Shown here: piece by piece, positions 3,067-43,537 of the stretch
Numbering within the stretch: position 1 is the first letter of the stretch
How the letters are laid out: each line of letters begins with the position of its first letter
Assembly (NCBI GenBank): GCA_951406725.2
Contig: OX597828.1
Span: forward strand, 2,108,001 to 2,172,000
Length of the DNA: 64,000 nt
Direction of reading: 5' to 3'
Origin: Octopus vulgaris
Taxonomy: Eukaryota
Notes under the pieces: generated by a model
Told to the model about the DNA's origin: nothing
What the model saw: only the letters and a program-made list of their open reading frames with translations
Databases searched by the model: none
Made by a program: the position numbers and the translations under genes

Positions 3067-4033
3067 AGGAAATGCAATAATCTTCAAAGAAGAAAGCATC
3101 ATAATACTTACTTGGTTGAGGTCAACTGTAACACTCGATCCCTACAATCACCTCTTTTCGATCGAATTAATGTGGTTCCTTTTCTTCGTTGGTACATCTA
3201 GTAATTTTATGAGTATTCATACTATTTTGGTCTACGGAATTGAAGAAAAAGGAATTAGATCAACAAACCCAAAGTTTTACGGTTTATGTGCAATGCAGGA
3301 AATAATATTTATGAATACTCTTTGTGCATTGGTTAGATTATTTAATTACTCCACGGAAGAGTATCAATATACATAAAATTGATACTTGTGCGAACAAAAA
3401 AATTATAATTTAATTTGTTTACCAAAATTTAAGTATTTCGCTTTCCATACTTCGCTGTGCATTGCGTGAAAATCAGTCAATAATCTTCGAAATCAGGATG
3501 ACAAAATTGTTGTCACGTCTTGAATGAACAATCCTGAATGAACAGAGCTATGATCAAAGACATACTAGCTTTGACTATCCGACCTTTTTATTGGTATCCA
3601 AGGCTAGATTATCTAATATGTCCTTTTTTTAATGGTTGATGGGCCCTTGAGAAGAAAACTTGGCTGCTATTTCTCGCAAATCGAGCACGTACTTGCAACT
3701 ACTCTATGTCTATTAATCGATGTTTTATAGGGAAAATAATTGTATCTGAAACCTGTTTTCTTAATATTTATTTCTCTGTATGAGATACTCTGTTGAGATA
3801 ATATGAGACTTTAATGTGTGATCTTAGGGATAAAAGTCTGACATAAATGCTACTCCTAATTTTTCAAAGATATTAAGCTATCATAGGATAATAACTAATG
3901 CACGTTTAAATATAACACATAATTGCTGCTTAAACTAACGTATAATCACGTATTTAGGCAAACTTTATGAAAATATAAATATAAAACATGTAAAATTGAT
4001 ATTTTAAATATATAATATAGTACCATTCAAGCA

Positions 4034-4945: not shown

Positions 4946-5099
4946 TAATAACTGATAGATATGAAGAAAACAAAGTAACAACAGAATCTGTACAGCAGCG
5001 AAAAGTTAGGGTAAAACTGAAATTAGAGAATGTCATGACAAAACAGGAGTAAGAAAATGATGATGGGGATGAGGAGGAAAAGAAGGAAGACGATTATAT

Positions 5100-6067: not shown

Positions 6068-6590
6068 AGAGCAGTGCATGCCATCAAAGTGACGCTGGGA
6101 AACAAATATACGAAGCCCTGTATACACATCATGACTACTCGTCTGATAACCATATGTGCGCGACATGGTGATCTCATATCAAGATAAACATCACATGACA
6201 TTGCAGGTGGTTCCCGGTTAGAATTTTTTTTCTGGTCGAGTAACCTATCCCGCTTAAAAGGTCCCTGAATAAGGGTTGTTTAAGGATGTTGAGCGAAACA
6301 GCCGTGTTTCCAGAGATGAATTATTCAAACCTTAAAGAATCCCTTTCAACACATGGCTATGATGCTCCCCCTCAACTTCTGCTCGTGATCAGAGATGCAC
6401 ATATCGTCAGCCATCAAGGGACATGCTCAATTGGTTAAGGTCAAACAACTGACAAGCATATATGTGGTACTGAGCAGAATATTTGCTGTAGGCCATCTTT
6501 TATACCAAGACAAAACAATGTACATCATAACACTTCCAATCAGTTAAGATCAGAAGCCACGAGAGCCACTGCCTGGTACTGTATCAGGGC

Positions 6591-6592
<2 letters not shown>
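6068..6592 (-). mobile_element. non-coding (TAA)n-associated interspersed element, copy 1 (5'-complete)
   Basis: The reverse complement aligns along its length with 16851-17454 and 18872-19266. It abuts the (TTA)n tract at 6593. Confidence 0.85.
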
Positions 6593-6651
<59 letters not shown>

Positions 6652-6721
6652 GTTGTTGTTGTTGTTGTTGTTGTTTTTGTTGTTGTTGGCATTATTATTA
6701 TTGTTGTTGTTGTTGTTGTTG

Positions 6722-9217: not shown

Positions 9218-9614
9218 TATTTGCTGCGGAACACATCGGACGTGTTTTCGAACGCTCCAAGTATGTTCAGTTCAAAATATTCATTTACACCAGGATTGGT
9301 GTCTTTGCAATAATTATTTTATTCCAAGTTGTGAATAGAAACACCAGGAACCTGTTACTGGTTTTGTATGGTTGTTTAGACCCCCCCAGAGGGGTGATTT
9401 TCGGCCCACCGAATAATTTCGGTGGGCATTAATTTAATTGAATCAAATACAACTCAACAAGATGGCGGAGCGTATCTTGAAAGAGTTGAGAAAAAACAAA
9501 ATAACCCTTATGATATGATAATGGCTGAATATTTCCCTCCCCTTCCCTCCGTTACTGTTAACAATACCGGGGAAGTGGGGAGGAGAAAAACAAGACTGTC
9601 ATGGTACAAAGTCC

Positions 9615-9920
9615 AATTAACAGTAACAACAGTAGTAGCAGAAACACTAACAGCGGTACAAACGATCGCAGCAGCAGCCGCAACAGGTAACAGCAGCCGC
9701 AGCAGTAGTAGTAGTAATAGCAACAGCAACCACGAAAAAGACAGCAACTACAGTAGCAGTAACGATAATAACAAGAACAACAACGAGAGCAAAAGTGACT
9801 ATAGCAACAGCAACAAACCAATACCAACAACATCGATAAGAACAACGACATCAACAGCAACGGTAGCAGCAACACTAACAGCAATAAAAACAACAACGAG
9901 AACAGTACGAATAACAAAAG
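9615..9920. repeat. degenerate (CAA/CAG/TAG)n triplet low-complexity tract
   Basis: Explains the T/S/N-rich ORF 9422-9931. Confidence 0.8.
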
Positions 9921-9924
9921 TACG

Positions 9925-11760
9925 TTCGTAGCAGCAGCGAAGGACAAACAACACATTACAGTAGACCTCACAAATAGGGAGCAGATGCTAGCACAGGCAT
10001 GGAAACTAATAAAACAAGAGAAGAGTTGAGCCAATTTAACTGTTCCATCAGAGGCAACTAAAGCAGTGGAGAAAAGAACCGTGCTTTTTAGATGCATCTC
10101 AGCAGACACGAAAAGAGCCGCTTTAATAGTCCAAGTAGACATTGAAATGACGCTGAGGTGCATCAGAAATGACATCGAATACATAGCGAGGGGAAACAAT
10201 ACGACACGATTTCGGTGCTGTTTAAGTCAGAAGCCCTCGCTATGAAACATTCAATGACCCCTTGCAAAAGCAGCAAAGTGATGTAGCCCTCCCACATGGG
10301 GAAACGTACATCACGTGTCCGCGTTCCTAGGATACCACCTGGACTAGATATGTGGTGGCTTCTAGGATGCGTAATCGTGGACTGGATAGATGCTGTCCCA
10401 ACAGAGGTGACAAGAACTGCCAGTAAAGACTGGTCCGGGGTTGACCTAGAGATACTGCTCCAGATCAGATCCGAAAACATAAAAAAATCCCGGGACAATG
10501 ATACTCATCATAACTGAGGGCAAAACGCTGCATTGTTGTGCGTATGTAGAAACGACTCACGGGTCACTGCCCCTAACTGGTACAAAGTGCAAGGGGTCAA
10601 AGGCCTCCACTGCTGCTTATGCCGGTACGAGGGTCACAAACAAAATCAGCACGGCAAAACCATTTCCTGTGAATATGTTAAATCACCCTCAAAATAAGTT
10701 AGGAAACTTACATACCTACAGCTTTCGAACACACAAATGACCAGTTAAAAAAGAACTCTAATAACTACAACTTCTGTGAATACCTATCCTTTCCTTTCTC
10801 CTCGAGTATTCGAAAATGTAAACATCCCTTTCATTGCATAAACACTACTGTATTCTCAACTGGATAGACAAACCAACATCTCAAGAGAACATAAAAACTT
10901 TAATATGTGGAAAAGTCGGAACACTAAAACATATTCTTTCCAACTGTTCATTAGCATTGAACAGGCACACATGGAGGCACAACCTGGTCCTTAAGGTTAT
11001 CTTCAATGCTATAAAGAACCAAATTCATCTCAACAACACTGAGGAAAAATCGTTAAAAGTACCATCAAGAGAGTTCATTACCTTCGTGCGACCAGGTCAG
11101 CAGATCCGTTTCAAGAAGAAGACAAAGAAACTTCCTGAGAAAAATGAAAAGTGGAACGGCTATTGGGAGGTAACTGCAGATTTACCTGGGTGCCAGGTTT
11201 TCTTTCCCATCCCAGTTTCGAAAAAACCAGATATTTTGATGTGGTGTGAAAGAAAGAAAGTTGTAAATATAGTCGAGCTAACGGTTCCTCACGAAGATAA
11301 TATGGACGCCGCTCGAGCTCGAAAATTAAACCGTTATGAAAACCTCCTCGAGGAATGTGAAGACGCAGGCTGGAAAGCGGAACATTTTCCTATCGAAGTC
11401 GTATGTAGAGGGTTTGTAGGACACAGCGTGAGACGACTGTTGTTATCGTTAGGCCTAACTCATCGTAAAGTCAATACCACCATGACTGATATCCAATCTA
11501 CAGTGGAGAAGGCTAGCCACTGGATTTGGTTAAAAAGAGACGATGAGCGATGGCTAGAAGTATATTGAGTTCTTCATAACCAGCTGATCTAGCAAGCGGG
11601 GCCTCATATCAGTGAGGGGGGCCGGTGCGCATTGATGCCGTCGAGAGGTAGGCCCCGAAACGGCGCGCATTCTCTCCTGATGACCCTATACACTTGCTAG
11701 CTTCCGATATACGGAGCTTTTAACTGGTAGCACTTGCATGTGCAAGTTGTTTGCAAGATA
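9925..11760 (+). mobile_element. HERO/NeSL-like RLE non-LTR retrotransposon, internally deleted (RT absent)
   Basis: GC-richer 5' block with a CKG.KGLH-like zinc-finger remnant near 10580-10612, followed by the RLE C-terminal ORF and a structured 3' UTR. Confidence 0.65.
10834..11568 (+). CDS. CCHC zinc knuckle + restriction-like endonuclease (PD-(D/E)xK) domain of a HERO-like retrotransposon
   Basis: CGKVGTLKHILSNC...WRHNLVL; KPDILMW...VNIVELTVPHED...RKLNRYENL...GWKAEHFPIEVVCRGF...EKASHWIWLKR. Open for 244 codons; the non-ATG start shows it is a fragment. Confidence 0.85.
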   Translation: MHKHYCILNWIDKPTSQENIKTLICGKVGTLKHILSNCSLALNRHTWRHNLVLKVIFNAIKNQIHLNNTEEKSLKVPSREFITFVRPGQQIRFKKKTKKLPEKNEKWNGYWEVTADLPGCQVFFPIPVSKKPDILMWCERKKVVNIVELTVPHEDNMDAARARKLNRYENLLEECEDAGWKAEHFPIEVVCRGFVGHSVRRLLLSLGLTHRKVNTTMTDIQSTVEKASHWIWLKRDDERWLEVY

Positions 11761-12569
11761 TCTATATAATTTTGAGTGAAACTTATGTCTGACTACCAAA
11801 ATATGTAAACAAATTTTATTGCAGCAACGCAGTTGAATTCAGAAACTTTAAAAAAAAGTGAATTCAACGACGTGAATATCAGTATATATATTGTTTTCTC
11901 TACAAGTAATTACAAATAGAACAGGTTGAATTGCTTCTTCTCAAGTGCAAGGTCAGCACTCTTAGTGGTCGCTGGTAGTAGTAAACGCATTTGACCTCTG
12001 CTGACCCAAAGTTGCTAAGATTCTTTTGTTTTTATGGCTGACCTTCCCAGCAAATGCCGAATCTATTTATAGACCTGTAGAATTCGAACTATTCACGAAG
12101 CTGCTACTTTACCCCTCCCGCAACAATTTCTTCCAACAACCACATATTTATGATTCTCTCAAGTACAAGACAAAAGTTGAAAATAAAGAACATCTAACAA
12201 AATATTTTAATAATAAATAAAAATAGTAATAATGATAATAACAGTGGTAGTGATGGTGATAATGATAAAAATAATAAAAATAATGATAATATGCTGCAGC
12301 TGCTAATGCTACAAATACTACTACAGCTAATACTATACTGATAGTACAGGAATCTGAGTCCCAAACAATTATACCAGTGATATCAGTGATGATAATAATA
12401 ATAGTAATGAAAGGAGCGGATGGACTCTCTCCGAGTGTTCCCATGTCCTGATTAATGATACATCTAATGTTGGTGTCACAATAAAAAACACTGGTAATTG
12501 CGCAACCTGATAATCGCTACCTCATATGAGTGACATTGAATAAATAAAATATTGTGAATAACGGTGGTA

Positions 12570-15068
12570 ATGAAACTGAAGCGAACAAAAATAGAAGGCA
12601 TTGAAAAGGAAGTATAATATTGAAAGAGAGGGCCTGAAAATGGTAATGGAGGAACTGAGGCAGCGCCACGTTGCAAAGAAAGCAAAGATGGTAAGATACG
12701 ACCAAAAGAATGAAAGGTTACCACCAGAATAGGTTATTCAGAGTAGATCAGAAGAGATTCTATAAAGAAATAAATGGAGAGTGTACTGATGAAAAGTTGG
12801 TACCAGATAACAATGAAAGTCAGAGGCTTTGGTGTGACATTTAGAACAAAGACAAGGAGGAAAAGAAGGATGATGAATGATTGCAAGAACTGAAACAAAC
12901 AGTAGTCTGTCTAAAACAGGCAGAATTAATCATTTCAGTTAGGGAAGTGAAAGAAATCAGCAAAAAGATGAGCAACTGGAAGACTCTGGGACCAGATGGA
13001 GTTCAAAGCTGCTGAATTAAAAGATTTGGTGAATGTCATGCACGAATAGCTGTGCAACTCAAAGCCTTGTTATATGCCGACCAAGTAATACCAGAGTGGT
13101 TGACATTGGGTAGGACAGTGCTGTATCTGAAAAACATCGAAAGAGGCAATACGCTAGAGGATTACAGGCCGGTGTCCTGTCTGTCACTTACGTGTACAAA
13201 CATCTGGAAAAAAAGTGGAGTCCTGCCACATGAGCAGAAGGATTGCAAGCGTAGGTGCAGAGGTACCGAGGATCAACTCCTGATAGACAAAACTGTACTT
13301 AGAGACTGCAAGAGGAGGAAAAGCAACTTAGCCATGTCATGAATCGACTATCGTAAAGAGTACGATAGGATCCCACATTCTTGGATAATGGAATGTATGA
13401 ACCTATTTGGTATTGCATCGAATGTTGAGCGATTGCTTGGAGAAAGTATGGCGAAATGGAGGACGGACGTAATAGAATACGGAATAAGTTTAGAGACAGC
13501 AGAACTCAGGAGGGGCATCTTCCAAGGAGACTGCATGTCCCCACTGATCTTTGTACTGTGCTTGATACCACCAACACTGATACTGAGGAAAGCAAAAGCT
13601 GGGTATGCATTCAAAATCCGTCAACAAAAAGCCAACCATCTGTTATTCATAGATGATCTCAAACTTTATGGTAAAGATGAAACCCAAGTCAGTTCCCTCG
13701 TTGATACGGTGTATACTTTCAGAGCTGATATCCGAATGGTGTTCGGACTGAGAAAGTGTGGTGTTAGTCTTGAAGAGAGGCAAAATCAAATGTATGGATG
13801 GGCTATCGATACCGTCGGGAGAGGTTATGAAGCAGATAGAAGAGATGGGCTATAAGTACTTTGTGATTTTCGAAATGGACAAATTGATGGAGAAAGAAAT
13901 GACAGAAAAATTTAAGGTGGAGCACTTGCGCAGACTGAGACTGATCCTTTAATTCGAAATTAAACGGACGGAATAAGACTGAAGCTATCAACACCTGGGC
14001 TGTTTCAACACTCAGATATGGAGCAGGGGTAATCGCATGGACAAAAAGTGACACACACAGACTATATGTACCAAGAAAAAGAGGGCGAAGAGGACTTATT
14101 GGATGCGAACACAGCATTAGAGCAGAAGAAAACAACATAGCATGGTATGTAAAAGATGCCACAGAGTCGCTATTATTAGAAGTAAGAAGGTCAGGCTTGT
14201 GTAGGATGAAAGATTGCAAAGATAAAGCACTGTACAAGCAATTGGAAACGATTGAAACTGAAAATAGATGGGTAAAAAGAATGCATGGGCAATTTCACAG
14301 GGATGTTGAAAATAAGACAGAGAAAAAAAGATGGCTGTGGATGACTAAAAGTGATTTAAAACCGGAAACGGAGTCTCTAATTTGTGCTGCCTAAGAGCAA
14401 GCACTAAGAACAAACTACATAAAATACAGAGTAGACACATCAGAAAGTGATAAGTGCAGAATTTGTGGACAAAATGGAGAAACCGTATGGCATATTACCA
14501 GTCAATGTACACCACTAGCGCAGAATGAATATAAGAGACGCTACGACAATATAGCAAGGCTTGTCCTTTAGATATATTGCAACACGTATGGACTTGACAG
14601 AGCAAAACATTGGTACAAGCTCAAACTCGAAGGCATCATTGAAAATGATAATGCAAAGATCTTGTGGGATATTATGATTCAGTGTAACCATGAGATAGAA
14701 AATAGGAAGCCAGATGTAGTGTTAATTGAGAAAGAAACCAAACTATGCTGGATTATAGATATAGCATGCGCAGCTGACACAAGGCATGTGATAAGGAAGA
14801 AAGAAAAGTCTATAGATATGACAGATTAGCTTGGGAGGTAAAGCATTTGTGGTCGATGAAAAGGGTGGTAGTAGTACCAATAATTGTTGGAACCTTCAAA
14901 AATCTCGAGAAGTACGTGGAACAAATAGGGGCTGCAATAAGGGTGGGACACTTACAGAAAACAGCACTGCTTGGAACCGCTCGAATACTCCAGAAGGTGC
15001 TCGAAAAATAAGAGATGAACAGCTGATACCGTAGTACATCTCCAGCGTTAGAAGCTGTGCAAAAGCAA
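12570..15068 (+). mobile_element. R4/Dong-clade LINE (RT + CCHC + RLE), decayed
   Basis: NWKTLGPDGVQ, YRPVSCL, EQKDCKRRCRGTEDQLLID, DYRKEYDRIPHSW, RRGIFQGDCMSPLIF, NHLLFIDDLKLY, CRICGQNGETVWHITSQC, ILWDIMIQCNHEIENRKPDVV, LQKTALLGTARILQKVLE. Ends in (TAA)n. Confidence 0.93.
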
Positions 15069-16736: not shown

Positions 16737-17454
<718 letters not shown>

Positions 17455-17493
17455 AATAATAATAATAGTAATAAATAATAATAATAATAAAAC

Positions 17494-17535
<42 letters not shown>

Positions 17536-18871: not shown

Positions 18872-19322
18872 AGTTGAGCATGTCCCTTAGTGGCTGACAA
18901 TATGTGCATCTCTGATCATGAGCAGAAGTAGTGGGGGAGCACCATAGCCGTGTGTTGAAAGGAATTCTTAGAGGTTTGGATAATTCACCTTTGGAAACAT
19001 GGGTGTTTCGTTCAACATCCTTAAACAATCCTTATTCAAGGACCTTTTGAGCGGGATGGGCTACTCGACCAGAAGAAAATTCTAACTGGGCCCCACCTGC
19101 AAGGTCATGCACTGTTTATCTTGATATGAGATCACCATGTCACACACATATGGTTGTGATGTATGTACCTCGTGTACCCTTATCAGACGGGTAGTCATGA
19201 TGGGTATACTGGGCTTCGTATATTTTACCCCAGTGTCACTTTGATGGCATGCACTGTTCTCTCACTGAATAATAAAACTAATAATAATAATAATAATAAA
19301 ACTAATAATAATAATAATAATA
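18872..19322 (+). mobile_element. non-coding (TAA)n-associated element, copy 3 (5'-truncated, with (AAT)n tail)
   Basis: Begins at agttgagcatgtccc (internal to copy 2) and ends ...ctctcactg followed by (AAT)n. Confidence 0.9.
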
Positions 19323-19719
19323 AGAGTAAATATGATGTGATGCTTTATAGATAGATTACTATAGTTTTGTTGAAACTTTGAGATGTTGTTCATAGATTCC
19401 TATATTCTAACTATGCTATATCCAACTTGTCGACGCTCCTCTCAAAATTCAACTCCCACCCGCCCAATCAACTATCAGTCCAGTCAAACAGCCTGTATTA
19501 GTAGACGCAACAAGCCTGCTCTGCTATTTAGCGCCGCTGCATCATCAGTAACTAAACCAATCTGCCATCAGTTGTTGTCTAGAGAAATCAGGTGAGACAA
19601 TAAATCATAGTAATAATAGTGAAACTACAGAAGTAAACAAGTAAATATTAAGGGATTATTGTAGTAATAGTGGAATTATAATAGTAAATAAGTAAATGAT
19701 AATCCAGAATGATCAACAA

Positions 19720-41248: not shown

Positions 41249-42342
41249 TATTTATATACATAAACATATATATGCATGTATATATGAATGCTTATATGCA
41301 TATACATATAAGTGTGTGTAAATGTATGTTTGTATAACAATAACAAAGTGAAATATAGCCAAAATATTTCAAGCCTTTGACAAACAAGTTGGTTACAAGC
41401 TTCATTCACCGCTAAACTAAATGATGCTAATTCAGAATTACTAAACCGAAGATATTATCTGAACTGAAGAATTGCAGAACTAGTATAGCTATTCCCATTT
41501 ATTTTTACGTTTCATTTGTAGTAAATTTTCCGAATTCTAAAAATATTATTTATCTGGGGATATTTTAAACCTATTACTTGTCATACATATCCAAATTCTC
41601 CATATTGAACAAATAATCTTCCCTAGCCACTGGCTGTCATTTTGCTCTGACTCTTCCTAAAATTTTATTGAGTGTGCAATTACAGATCGAAAAGCATATA
41701 GAATGCCTGAAATATAGAAATTTGAATATAGTTTTTCATGTTGAGAGAGTAGTATAGACATGTTGCTTTGATATTTATCGGACAAGTCGTTATTTCCCTA
41801 AAAACTTGTTTTGACCGGTAAATATACAGCCAAATAAACCAACACCATAAGTCGGTATTCTATGTGAGCCTTCCCATGTTATATAATATACATCCGCGTG
41901 CATATGTATATTTTGATATTTGCGCACACATACACACTTGTATGTATATATAATCTATGCATGTATATATACATGCAGATGTCAAATAAATTATTGTCAC
42001 AAGACTAACACAGTTTCCTTTGTAAAAGAATATCTACGAAAATAGTAGGATGGTCAACGTTTCTGATTTGTATTTCTTTGTAGTCAGATAGAGTTTGGTT
42101 GCGAAGGAGTGGTTCAACAAAATTCTAGGCTTTGCAGTTAATGCAAGGAAGGAAGGCATCGAAACTGGTCGAGGGCAAAGAAAGAAGAGAGAGGATGCTT
42201 GAAATCACTCAGTGAATGTTTTTCACTCGCGGCTATTTTTCTCTCAGGACAGGAGGATGATTAGATATCAGTAGAATTTAAATCATAATGAAGAAATATA
42301 CTTACTTATATGGAGACATATAAATATGTTTAGTTTAAATTC

Positions 42343-42499
42343 TTATTTACATTATTTACATTTGACGAATATTTGTCCTCACAACGTTTCGGCTGATATA
42401 CACTCCAGCCCTCATCAGGTGTCTTGGGGAAATTTCGAACCTGGGTTCAAATTCCCAAGGTATTTTTCGATGTTATTATTGCTATTACTATTATTATTA

Positions 42500-42583
<84 letters not shown>

Positions 42584-42631
42584 TTACTTGGGGTTAGTAG
42601 TCCGTGCTCTTAACCACTACGTCATATGCCC
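42343..42631 (-). mobile_element. tRNA-head/(AAT)n/hammerhead-tail SINE-like element, left copy
   Basis: Minus strand: gggcatatgacgTAGTGGTTAAgagcacggactactaacccaag (A box, B box deleted), then (AAT)n, then gaacccaggttcgaaatttccccaagacac-CTGATGA...GAAACGTT, ending gtcaaatgtaaataatgtaaataa. Inverted homolog of 43047-43406. Confidence 0.85.
42380..42423 (-). ncRNA. minimal type-I hammerhead ribozyme
   Basis: gacac-CTGATGA-g-ggctg-gagtgtatat-cagcc-GAAA-CG-TT-gtg. Confidence 0.75.
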
Positions 42632-42640
42632 GTGGGCAAT

Positions 42641-43050
42641 TCCACCGGCGACGCTGCCGCTCGCTCACGAACGCGACGGGCGGACGGAGAACGCCGAGCT
42701 AAGGCATGCGCCTTGAGGTTGAGACGCTTTTGGAGAACAACTCGGGTCCGGCGACGGTTCCGGCTTAGAGGCGTTCAGCTGTTATCGCTCAGAAGCAGCC
42801 TAGCACCACCGCTCTATCGAGCGAGCGCGCAAACCGTTGCTCTGATCCTGCGGTTCCTCTCATACTGGACGGGATAGCCATAGCCGAGTTGACGTTGCCG
42901 GCGCCCGCCTAAGATCGGCAGAAACGTCGGCGGCGGCGACGGATAACGCGCGAGTGCGCCGATGCCACCGCACACCGAACCCCCTACGCGACTCGGGGCA
43001 CCGCGTATGCTCGATGCATCGGTGGGATAAAACTAACCTGTCTCACGACG
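42641..43050 (-). pseudogene. 28S: retro-captured 28S (LSU) rRNA 3'-region fragment including the sarcin-ricin loop
   Basis: Minus strand carries the universal LSU blocks CGTCGTGAGACAGGTTAGTTTTA (from 43050), AGTAtGAGAGGAACCGCAGG (SRL, 42866-42847) and CTGAACGCCTCTAAG (42780-42766) in correct order. The segment is strongly GC-rich against an AT-rich background. Confidence 0.92.
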
Positions 43051-43143
43051 TAGTGGTTAAGTGCGCGGGTTACTAACCCCAAGATTCTGAGTTCGATTCC
43101 AGGCAGTGACCTGAATAATAATAATGATAATAATAATAATAAC

Positions 43144-43240
<97 letters not shown>

Positions 43241-43406
43241 GGAATGAGAACCCAGGTTCGAAATTTCCCCAAGATACCTGATGAAGGCTGGATGGTATAT
43301 CAGCCGAAACGTTGTGTTACCAACAAACAAGATGAGGACAAATACCCGTCAAATGTAAATAATGTAAATAATGTACGTAATTCCTCATCTCTTAAATATA
43401 GAACTG
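43047..43406 (+). mobile_element. tRNA-head/(AAT)n/hammerhead-tail SINE-like element, right copy
   Basis: A box TAGTGGTTAAG (43051), B box GAGTTCGATTCC (43089-43100), (AAT)n about 43114-43240, hammerhead 43273-43318, then tail. Confidence 0.88.
43273..43318 (+). ncRNA. minimal type-I hammerhead ribozyme
   Basis: gatac-CTGATGA-a-ggctg-gatggtatat-cagcc-GAAA-CG-TT-gtgtt. 5-bp stem II; ACGT palindrome for a dimeric stem III. Confidence 0.78.
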
Positions 43407-43537
43407 TATCACCATATCGCTGATTTCAAAAGACATCTTTACCACAGTAATTCTTATTCATTCGTTATGTTCTCTGCATATTTTCAATATTAATTATACA
43501 TTTTGAAATCGATTAAGCACGCATGCACGCACACACA

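Follow-up and report, generated by a model that had tools for sequence, protein, structure and literature searches.

A 28S rRNA fragment between two inverted arms

The window analysed here, a 64,000-nucleotide stretch of Octopus vulgaris DNA (positions 2108001-2172000 of contig OX597828.1, here C15; the assembly searched comprises 2.8 Gb in 227 contigs), carries at 42343-43409 a fragment of 28S rRNA enclosed by two inverted copies of one element. An earlier note on this DNA had described the enclosing copies as ribozyme-bearing SINEs and set the right end of the composite at 43406, which is corrected here to 43409. The features are listed below; they were delimited by sequence comparison, the hammerhead cores were read from the letters, and any other basis is given in brackets.

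42343..42641, minus strand: left arm, 5'-truncated 3' end of a Penelope-like element (PLE), without the terminal tail of about 37 nt
42343..42472, minus strand: 3' segment of the left arm, with an 18-nt deletion between short TG repeats
42383..42418, minus strand: putative minimal hammerhead core of the left arm made up of CUGAUGA, stem II and GAAAC-GUU; the deletion has left stem I short (Rfam silent)
42473..42579, minus strand: (AAT)n tract of the left arm
42580..42641, minus strand: tRNA-like head of the left arm, retaining an A-box-like motif but not the B box, which is deleted, and including the self-complementary stretch upstream where most pairs join
42635..42641, no strand: left-junction microhomology of element and rDNA, 7 nt, GGCAATT (read contigs have loose ends at 42641)
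42635..43050, minus strand: 28S rRNA fragment of 416 nt; it begins 197 nt inward of the 3' end as Rfam defines it and stops 6 nt before the peptidyl-transferase triple U, counted to the first U (rDNA comparison and Rfam)
43047..43050, no strand: right-junction microhomology, at least CG, extending to GACG on a template with the variant of the left arm
43049..43409, plus strand: right arm, 3' end of the element found in the left arm, again 5'-truncated, its terminal tail complete
43049..43113, plus strand: tRNA-like head of the right arm, with A-box-like and B-box-like motifs (by eye; no tRNA by ARAGORN)
43114..43240, plus strand: (AAT)n tract of the right arm
43278..43313, plus strand: putative minimal hammerhead core of the right arm
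43372..43409, plus strand: terminal tail, in the right arm only

The 28S identity and minus-strand sense of the enclosed piece, both proposed earlier, are borne out by a match to Rfam RF02543 at 42739-42890 on the minus strand (90.4 bits, E 1.2e-21) and by the comparison with the species' own rDNA unit that the earlier note had suggested: the tandem units on C20 match 42635-43050 with 90.2% identity over 430 columns; they are 18.3 kb long and contain 18S, 5.8S and 28S. At Rfam gathering thresholds the whole window gave no match, and no other rDNA-like sequence was found in it. The piece had been given as 42641-43050, about 410 nt; its right limit stands, while its start lies 6 nt further left because GGCAATT is common to rDNA and element. 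With 26 substitutions in 414 columns, 16 of them at CpG, it is an old, decaying copy, and the locus as a whole is a dead, decaying sequence with no sign of function. The composite is single-copy and did not amplify: among the best 40 of 102 28S candidates found with the query of about 410 nt, the element flanks one, the window copy, and lies within 1-1.5 kb of none of the other 39. Elsewhere the window holds broken frames resembling a LINE-type reverse transcriptase with flanking domains (9398-14294) and at least three copies, facing both ways, of a further repeat that carries (AAT)n-like tracts (6068-6705, 16737-17520 and 18872-19329).

The deletions that the earlier note listed in the two inverted arms are present. 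The left arm lacks 23 nt of the head, including the B box, and 18 nt of the tail, and the right arm lacks a segment preceding the tail; the box-like motifs are assigned by eye against the box consensus. These differences had been read as the mark of two template RNAs, a view that the family at large does not support: the arms differ by 7.1% compared with a median of 8.3% in 40 other pairs, deletions in one arm only occur in 20 of 48 pairs, and the 18-nt deletion is found again in other copies on unrelated backgrounds. The arm tails have no derived substitution in common and 6 and 3 private ones, and 17 of 48 ordinary pairs likewise share none. We regard the differences as ordinary decay; three templates are not proven, and the source could be one RNA or two. 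The 18-nt deletion was also considered as a subfamily marker and rejected, since none of the five other copies that have it shows more than one of the six substitutions seen in the left arm. ARAGORN called no tRNA, Rfam reported neither a tRNA nor a hammerhead for the arms, and monomer folding of the hammerheads, head, hairpin and tail gave no significant z-score (-0.46 and 0.05 for the hammerheads).

Identity of the element

A search of the genome with the right-arm tail yielded 2903 candidates, the best 40 of which were scored and matched at 94-100%. Longer copies extend the arm sequence upstream into a reading frame, and a protein search with that frame returned 3499 candidates, of which the best 150 were scored and ten loci fetched. 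Head and tail follow the stop codon at seven of the ten, the head alone at one and the tail alone at one, and at the last the match ends with the ORF. Frames of 305 and 362 aa carry a C-terminal GIY-YIG-like domain with CxC, and in one copy (L081) the RT motif YVDD stands upstream. The nearest ESM Atlas clusters at 0.97 are HTH_animal, with GIY-YIG in 13-14% of members; Pfam, applied to three ORF pieces, named no RT or GIY-YIG family. From the stop codon on, the element continues with a short hairpin, then the tRNA-like head, the (AAT)n tract, the minimal hammerhead and finally the tail.

By these features of other, partial copies outside the window, the arms are the 3' UTR or terminal repeat of a PLE with RT and GIY-YIG domains, of the EN+ type. 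In addition to the RT and GIY-YIG frame, PLE features are seen in an inverted truncated copy, a one-sided tail and a minimal hammerhead core, recognizable by sequence in both arms. The PLE-type machinery that the earlier note invoked is supported. A separate SINE family is not, as the arm sequence elsewhere trails an RT/GIY-YIG frame. Nothing links the ribozyme to the capture, in which it had been given a role.

With EN+ Penelope and Poseidon PLEs the family shares an RT followed by a C-terminal GIY-YIG-like domain, strong 5' truncation, an inverted 5'-truncated copy, a tail of 30-40 bp at one end and a hammerhead in the terminal repeat (PMC8557442, PMC11167929; these and the other publications cited here were accessible in part, and statements on them refer to that part). 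It differs from the published EN+ PLEs, as described there, in the tRNA-like head and (AAT)n tract of the 3' UTR, in the start of most short copies at the head and in foreign sequence within pair centres, and its placement is by domain order and structural features. The putative hammerheads resemble the minimal type I hammerheads of metazoan PLEs in their core boxes, an extra base before stem II, a stem I of 4-5 bp and a palindromic stem III (PMC4209133); in contrast, the left copy here has a shortened stem I, and both motifs are read from the letters only.

The head of a tRNA-derived SINE is foreign to the autonomous partner, whereas the head here stands directly after the PLE stop codon. Among 58 tail-selected copies, 21 begin between -20 and +3 of the A box, 11 begin inside the head, 21 are headless and 5 reach the frame, so that 21 of the 37 head-bearing copies begin within -20..+3, a distribution that either a Pol III transcript or an RT stop at the hairpin would give. 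The short copies are SINE-like in behaviour in that most begin at the tRNA-like head, and the head within the PLE 3' UTR is possibly a SINE arising inside its own partner. The head with its A- and B-box-like motifs can be seen at L112:2001-2125, as in most family copies, within the PLE 3' UTR and at the start of most short copies.

Head-to-head pairs and the contents of their centres

Head-to-head pairs make up 27 of the 58 tail-selected loci. Exact anchors of 12+12 nt retrieved 237 pairs with a spacer of up to 30 nt, 32 with 31-61 nt and 3 with 400-430 nt, this locus included, and anchors of 11+11 nt a further 6 with 62-92 nt; the control gave 0 for each of these classes, and spacers of 95-399 nt and above 430 nt lie outside the sample. 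The short-anchor patterns also matched other repeat families, which were dropped by eye. At least one other repeat family consists of short palindromic units with the same 10-nt terminal anchor (for example G000:C1:111156714, C8:27038484, C21:42515356).

Most pairs are joined within the self-complementary stretch upstream of the head, and the full tail is present on one arm only in 44 of 54 pairs as well as at the window locus. Because an exact flanking repeat of at least 10 nt is found in 19 of 54 pairs compared with 1% in swapped controls, a head-to-head pair is a single insertion event. The window locus thus carries the standard tail asymmetry of a family in which inverted pairs are the norm. 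In vitro, a PLE protein cuts both strands, extends each of them and has two start sites by which the tail is defined (PMC11167929), and the one-tail asymmetry agrees with this. Dual hammerhead motifs on opposite strands, 100-700 bp apart, have been described in metazoan PLEs (PMC4209133). The related non-LTR retrozymes are likewise short hammerhead units from PLE terminal repeats; they form head-to-tail tandem arrays, while the copies here are dispersed singles and head-to-head pairs (10.64898/2026.07.22.740005).

The earlier note had proposed a genome-wide search for inverted pairs and their contents, in the expectation of rRNA, tRNA and mRNA pieces. The pairs proved plentiful, and their fillers include 28S as well as sequence from other donors. 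We selected by eye 21 pairs with foreign-looking centres among the matches listed (including the best 50 of 106 and the best 50 of 55). One of them (L140, G000:C5:89860637-89860710) holds a 32-nt exact 28S match at its centre, at unit position 2740, and the end of this filler is not at the triple-U site. If random genomic DNA were the donor, the chance of a 28S filler among the 21 would be 0.3-3.4%, assuming 100-1000 rDNA copies, at which 28S makes up about 0.02-0.16% of the genome. Three other fillers of 73, 65 and 22 nt (L159, L160 and L161, at about position 5000 of each) were copied from sequence at a distance of 1.1-1.4 kb, and one of the three is inverted relative to its source. One filler may derive from a simple repeat at a distance of 4.6-4.9 kb, a second matches a different repeat, and the centre of L154 (G000:C1:97639520-97639576) carries about two repeats that look telomeric. 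At three centres (L134/L168, L155 and L133/L167) a run of six A directly precedes the hairpin, and two of them share a 14-nt stretch; these runs could be jumps onto poly(A) ends or the flank of the source copy. The remaining fillers have no assigned donor or are scrambled element sequence, and Rfam returned microsatellite noise only for eight filler loci. Since one 28S filler occurs together with three copies of nearby DNA, the pair centre is a general end-joining trap for several kinds of donor.

Origin of the chimera

At the left junction, the 7-nt microhomology GGCAATT had not been recognized in the earlier note. At the right junction, the letters GACG that it reported are present; their full length as a microhomology is not secure, as the family normally has G where GACG has A (GG in 97 of 111 heads, GA in 3 of 111), and CG is therefore the safe part. 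The proposed joining through microhomology is supported. The statement that no target duplication is evident is also upheld, no duplication of at least 7 exact bases being found at the locus; the stretch 42318-42329, which resembles the element's end at 9 of 12 positions, was considered as a duplication and rejected, as 13 nt separate it from the arm.

The triple U of the peptidyl-transferase centre contains m3U in fly, human and mouse, and reverse transcriptase stops one base 3' of it (10.1101/2024.06.27.600882). Past the right junction of our locus, the rDNA reaches the first of these three U after 6 nt. We take the first U to be the modified one, matching the preprint's wording to the rRNA numbering, and the choice of U shifts the distance by at most 2 nt. 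The idea of a stall was drawn from the window and then tried on other dispersed 28S loci. From 33 such loci we removed the window, 9 ends at the R2 site, 1 internal deletion (L011) and 8 ends inside the query; 3 of the 14 remaining pieces end at 0..+6, two of them exactly at +6 (P 0.0002-0.01). One, L009 (G000:C5:7247002-7247670), runs from the mature 28S 3' end to +6 and continues as a short fold-back copy. A pattern search for copies leaving the rDNA within 41 nt gave 7 matches. One is the window copy, four end at +2, +5 (new), +6 and +20, and of the other two one has an internal deletion and one is a diverged copy that continues. Together with L062 (+6) and L068 (+15), four of six other ends fall in the first 7 of 42 positions (+0..+41; P 0.009), with ends adjoining (TA)n uncertain by about 2 nt. 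An apparent duplication around L062 is a minisatellite and was dropped.

As the 28S ends cluster near the RT-blocking m3U site, mature rRNA is favoured as the template of the 28S piece, and by analogy with the assayed animals a stall of the reverse transcriptase at the methylated base likely ended it; the window end lies 6 nt short of the predicted stall, not on it. We discarded the sense orientation as evidence of an RNA template, since by symmetry any filler flanked by inverted arms runs in the direction of one of them, whichever way it lies. The switch from element RNA to 28S rRNA that the earlier note inferred thereby gains two kinds of new evidence, the end near an RT block and the second 28S capture in L140. 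A different set of 28S units, broken at or near the R2 target and followed by foreign sequence (L002:2820, L010, L012, L013, L015, L016, L017, L019, L020 and L051), was also seen; many units broken at that site are dispersed outside the rDNA array with the downstream spacer attached.

We consider it probable that the 28S fragment was joined by microhomologies between the inverted PLE arms in one insertion event, in which the reverse transcriptase switched onto mature 28S rRNA. In this event, both ends of the target break would have primed cDNA on element RNA, the right arm at the full 3' end and the left arm at an internal start. The left cDNA would then have reached the head region, re-annealed through GGCAATT to 28S rRNA and continued for about 420 nt before stalling at m3U, and the two cDNA ends may have been trimmed by a few bases and joined through CG or GACG. 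One event fits because the three parts are similarly diverged: the 28S piece differs at 10 of 273 non-CpG positions (3.7%), and the arms overall differ from the family majority at 9 of 185 (4.9%) and 9 of 234 (3.8%).

A different enzyme, or a later occasion, is conceivable. The 28S ends of L009 and L174 (G000:C1:173742878 region), at +6 and +5, are fused to a shared 45-nt end of a different element beside (TA)n. Chimeras that stop at the triple U are therefore not unique to this PLE, and the 28S cDNA need not be PLE-made; it might have been produced by another RT, or later, and patched into the centre at insertion or when the inverted repeat broke, inverted repeats being prone to breakage. However, the left microhomology extends the element at precisely the point expected for a switch by an advancing cDNA, arms and filler are alike in divergence, and many pair centres are filled with neither head lost. 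We regard such patching as unlikely, if still worth serious attention. Much the same weight, and if anything slightly less, goes to a DNA donor, be it a dispersed 28S pseudogene or the rDNA array, copied into the meeting point of the two cDNAs through microhomology-mediated end joining. It is a live rival because the fillers derive from several donors: 3 of 21 are copies of DNA within 1.5 kb, for which nascent RNA is an alternative, dispersed rDNA pieces are as common as the 102 candidates (best 40 scored) indicate, and the microhomologies are compatible with either template. On the other hand, both rRNA fillers lie within mature 28S, the end 6 nt from the RT stop is common to other 28S copies, and 28S is a minute share of the genome at the assumed copy numbers.

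That two elements inserted independently at the ends of a pre-existing 28S pseudogene is highly improbable. The lack of shared derived substitutions in the arm tails is in line with it, but the same holds for about a third of ordinary pairs, as counted above; moreover, the window has no other rDNA, neither arm has its own duplication, the one-tail asymmetry is that of single events, and none of the 39 other scored 28S matches has the element nearby.

The junctions, for which the earlier note had advised long reads or PCR, were compared with contigs of the best 4 of 24 short-read runs (X5-X24 have small word shares). The right junction is crossed by a 208-nt contig of X1 at 42881-43088, without differences and at single-copy-like depth; the left is bridged by none of the contigs listed for X1-X4, nor is the whole stretch. 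X2 covers 158 nt within the 28S piece without differences. X3 and X4, which bear other organism labels, cover the 174 nt of 42868-43041 with 3 differences, compared with a distance of about 10% to true rDNA; their left-flank contigs reach 25-29 nt into the left arm, which is too short to bridge. The insertion appears older than the split between the organism labels of X1-X4. Mis-assembly of repeat and rDNA sequence, which the unbridged left side and the possibility that X1 may be the source sample of the assembly would allow, is unlikely to the point of being barely credible given the intact X1 contig, the X3 and X4 sequences and the CpG decay of the 28S piece.

The closest known kind is the 28S/LINE-1 chimera, in which a similar-size internal 28S fragment (50-482 nt, median 269, n=18) sits on the 5' end of a truncated retroelement and for which template switching or twin priming has been proposed (PMC13174262). 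Our locus works like one but is not a member: its partner is a PLE, the fragment lies between inverted arms, there is neither poly(A) nor a target duplication, and it ends at the triple U, whereas the common start in that paper is near 3,636 (PMC13174262). SINE28 elements are likewise reverse-transcribed genomic fragments of the 28S 3' region; they reach the 3' end, carry a simple tail and mostly have duplications (PMC4994717), in contrast to the internal, untailed, single-copy piece described here, which starts 197 nt inside the 3' end and is the only one of 40 scored 28S matches flanked by the element. A published repeat annotation for Octopus vulgaris names families of Penelope and SINE type but gives none of these details in its accessible part (PMC13282606). 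Our literature search retrieved no rRNA capture by a PLE and no rRNA pseudogene ends marking m3U; as most subscription papers and Repbase were outside its scope, this is weak evidence of novelty.

The value of the locus is mechanistic, as a fossil of PLE integration, not functional. How PLEs come to have inverted arms and how their integration is completed are still open questions, and the in vitro work of 2024 leaves the steps after priming unvalidated (PMC11167929). A genome census could test two-ended priming and template switching in this family, whose pairs can be counted in the hundreds, share target duplications and have fillers that can be identified. That 28S retro-fragments cluster in their ends at one modified base suggests a use of pseudogene ends for mapping RT-blocking rRNA modifications in organisms that have not been assayed. 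The general picture, in which this PLE family primes cDNA from both ends of a break, the cDNA junction traps host RNA or nearby DNA, and 28S pieces record an ancestral m3U of the peptidyl-transferase centre, is tentative, and taken as a whole we would doubt it slightly sooner than accept it. If it is true, tens of thousands of copies would serve as an in vivo record both of template switching by PLEs and of the rRNA sites modified in ancient times, and the tRNA-like head in the PLE 3' UTR would be a SINE in the making.
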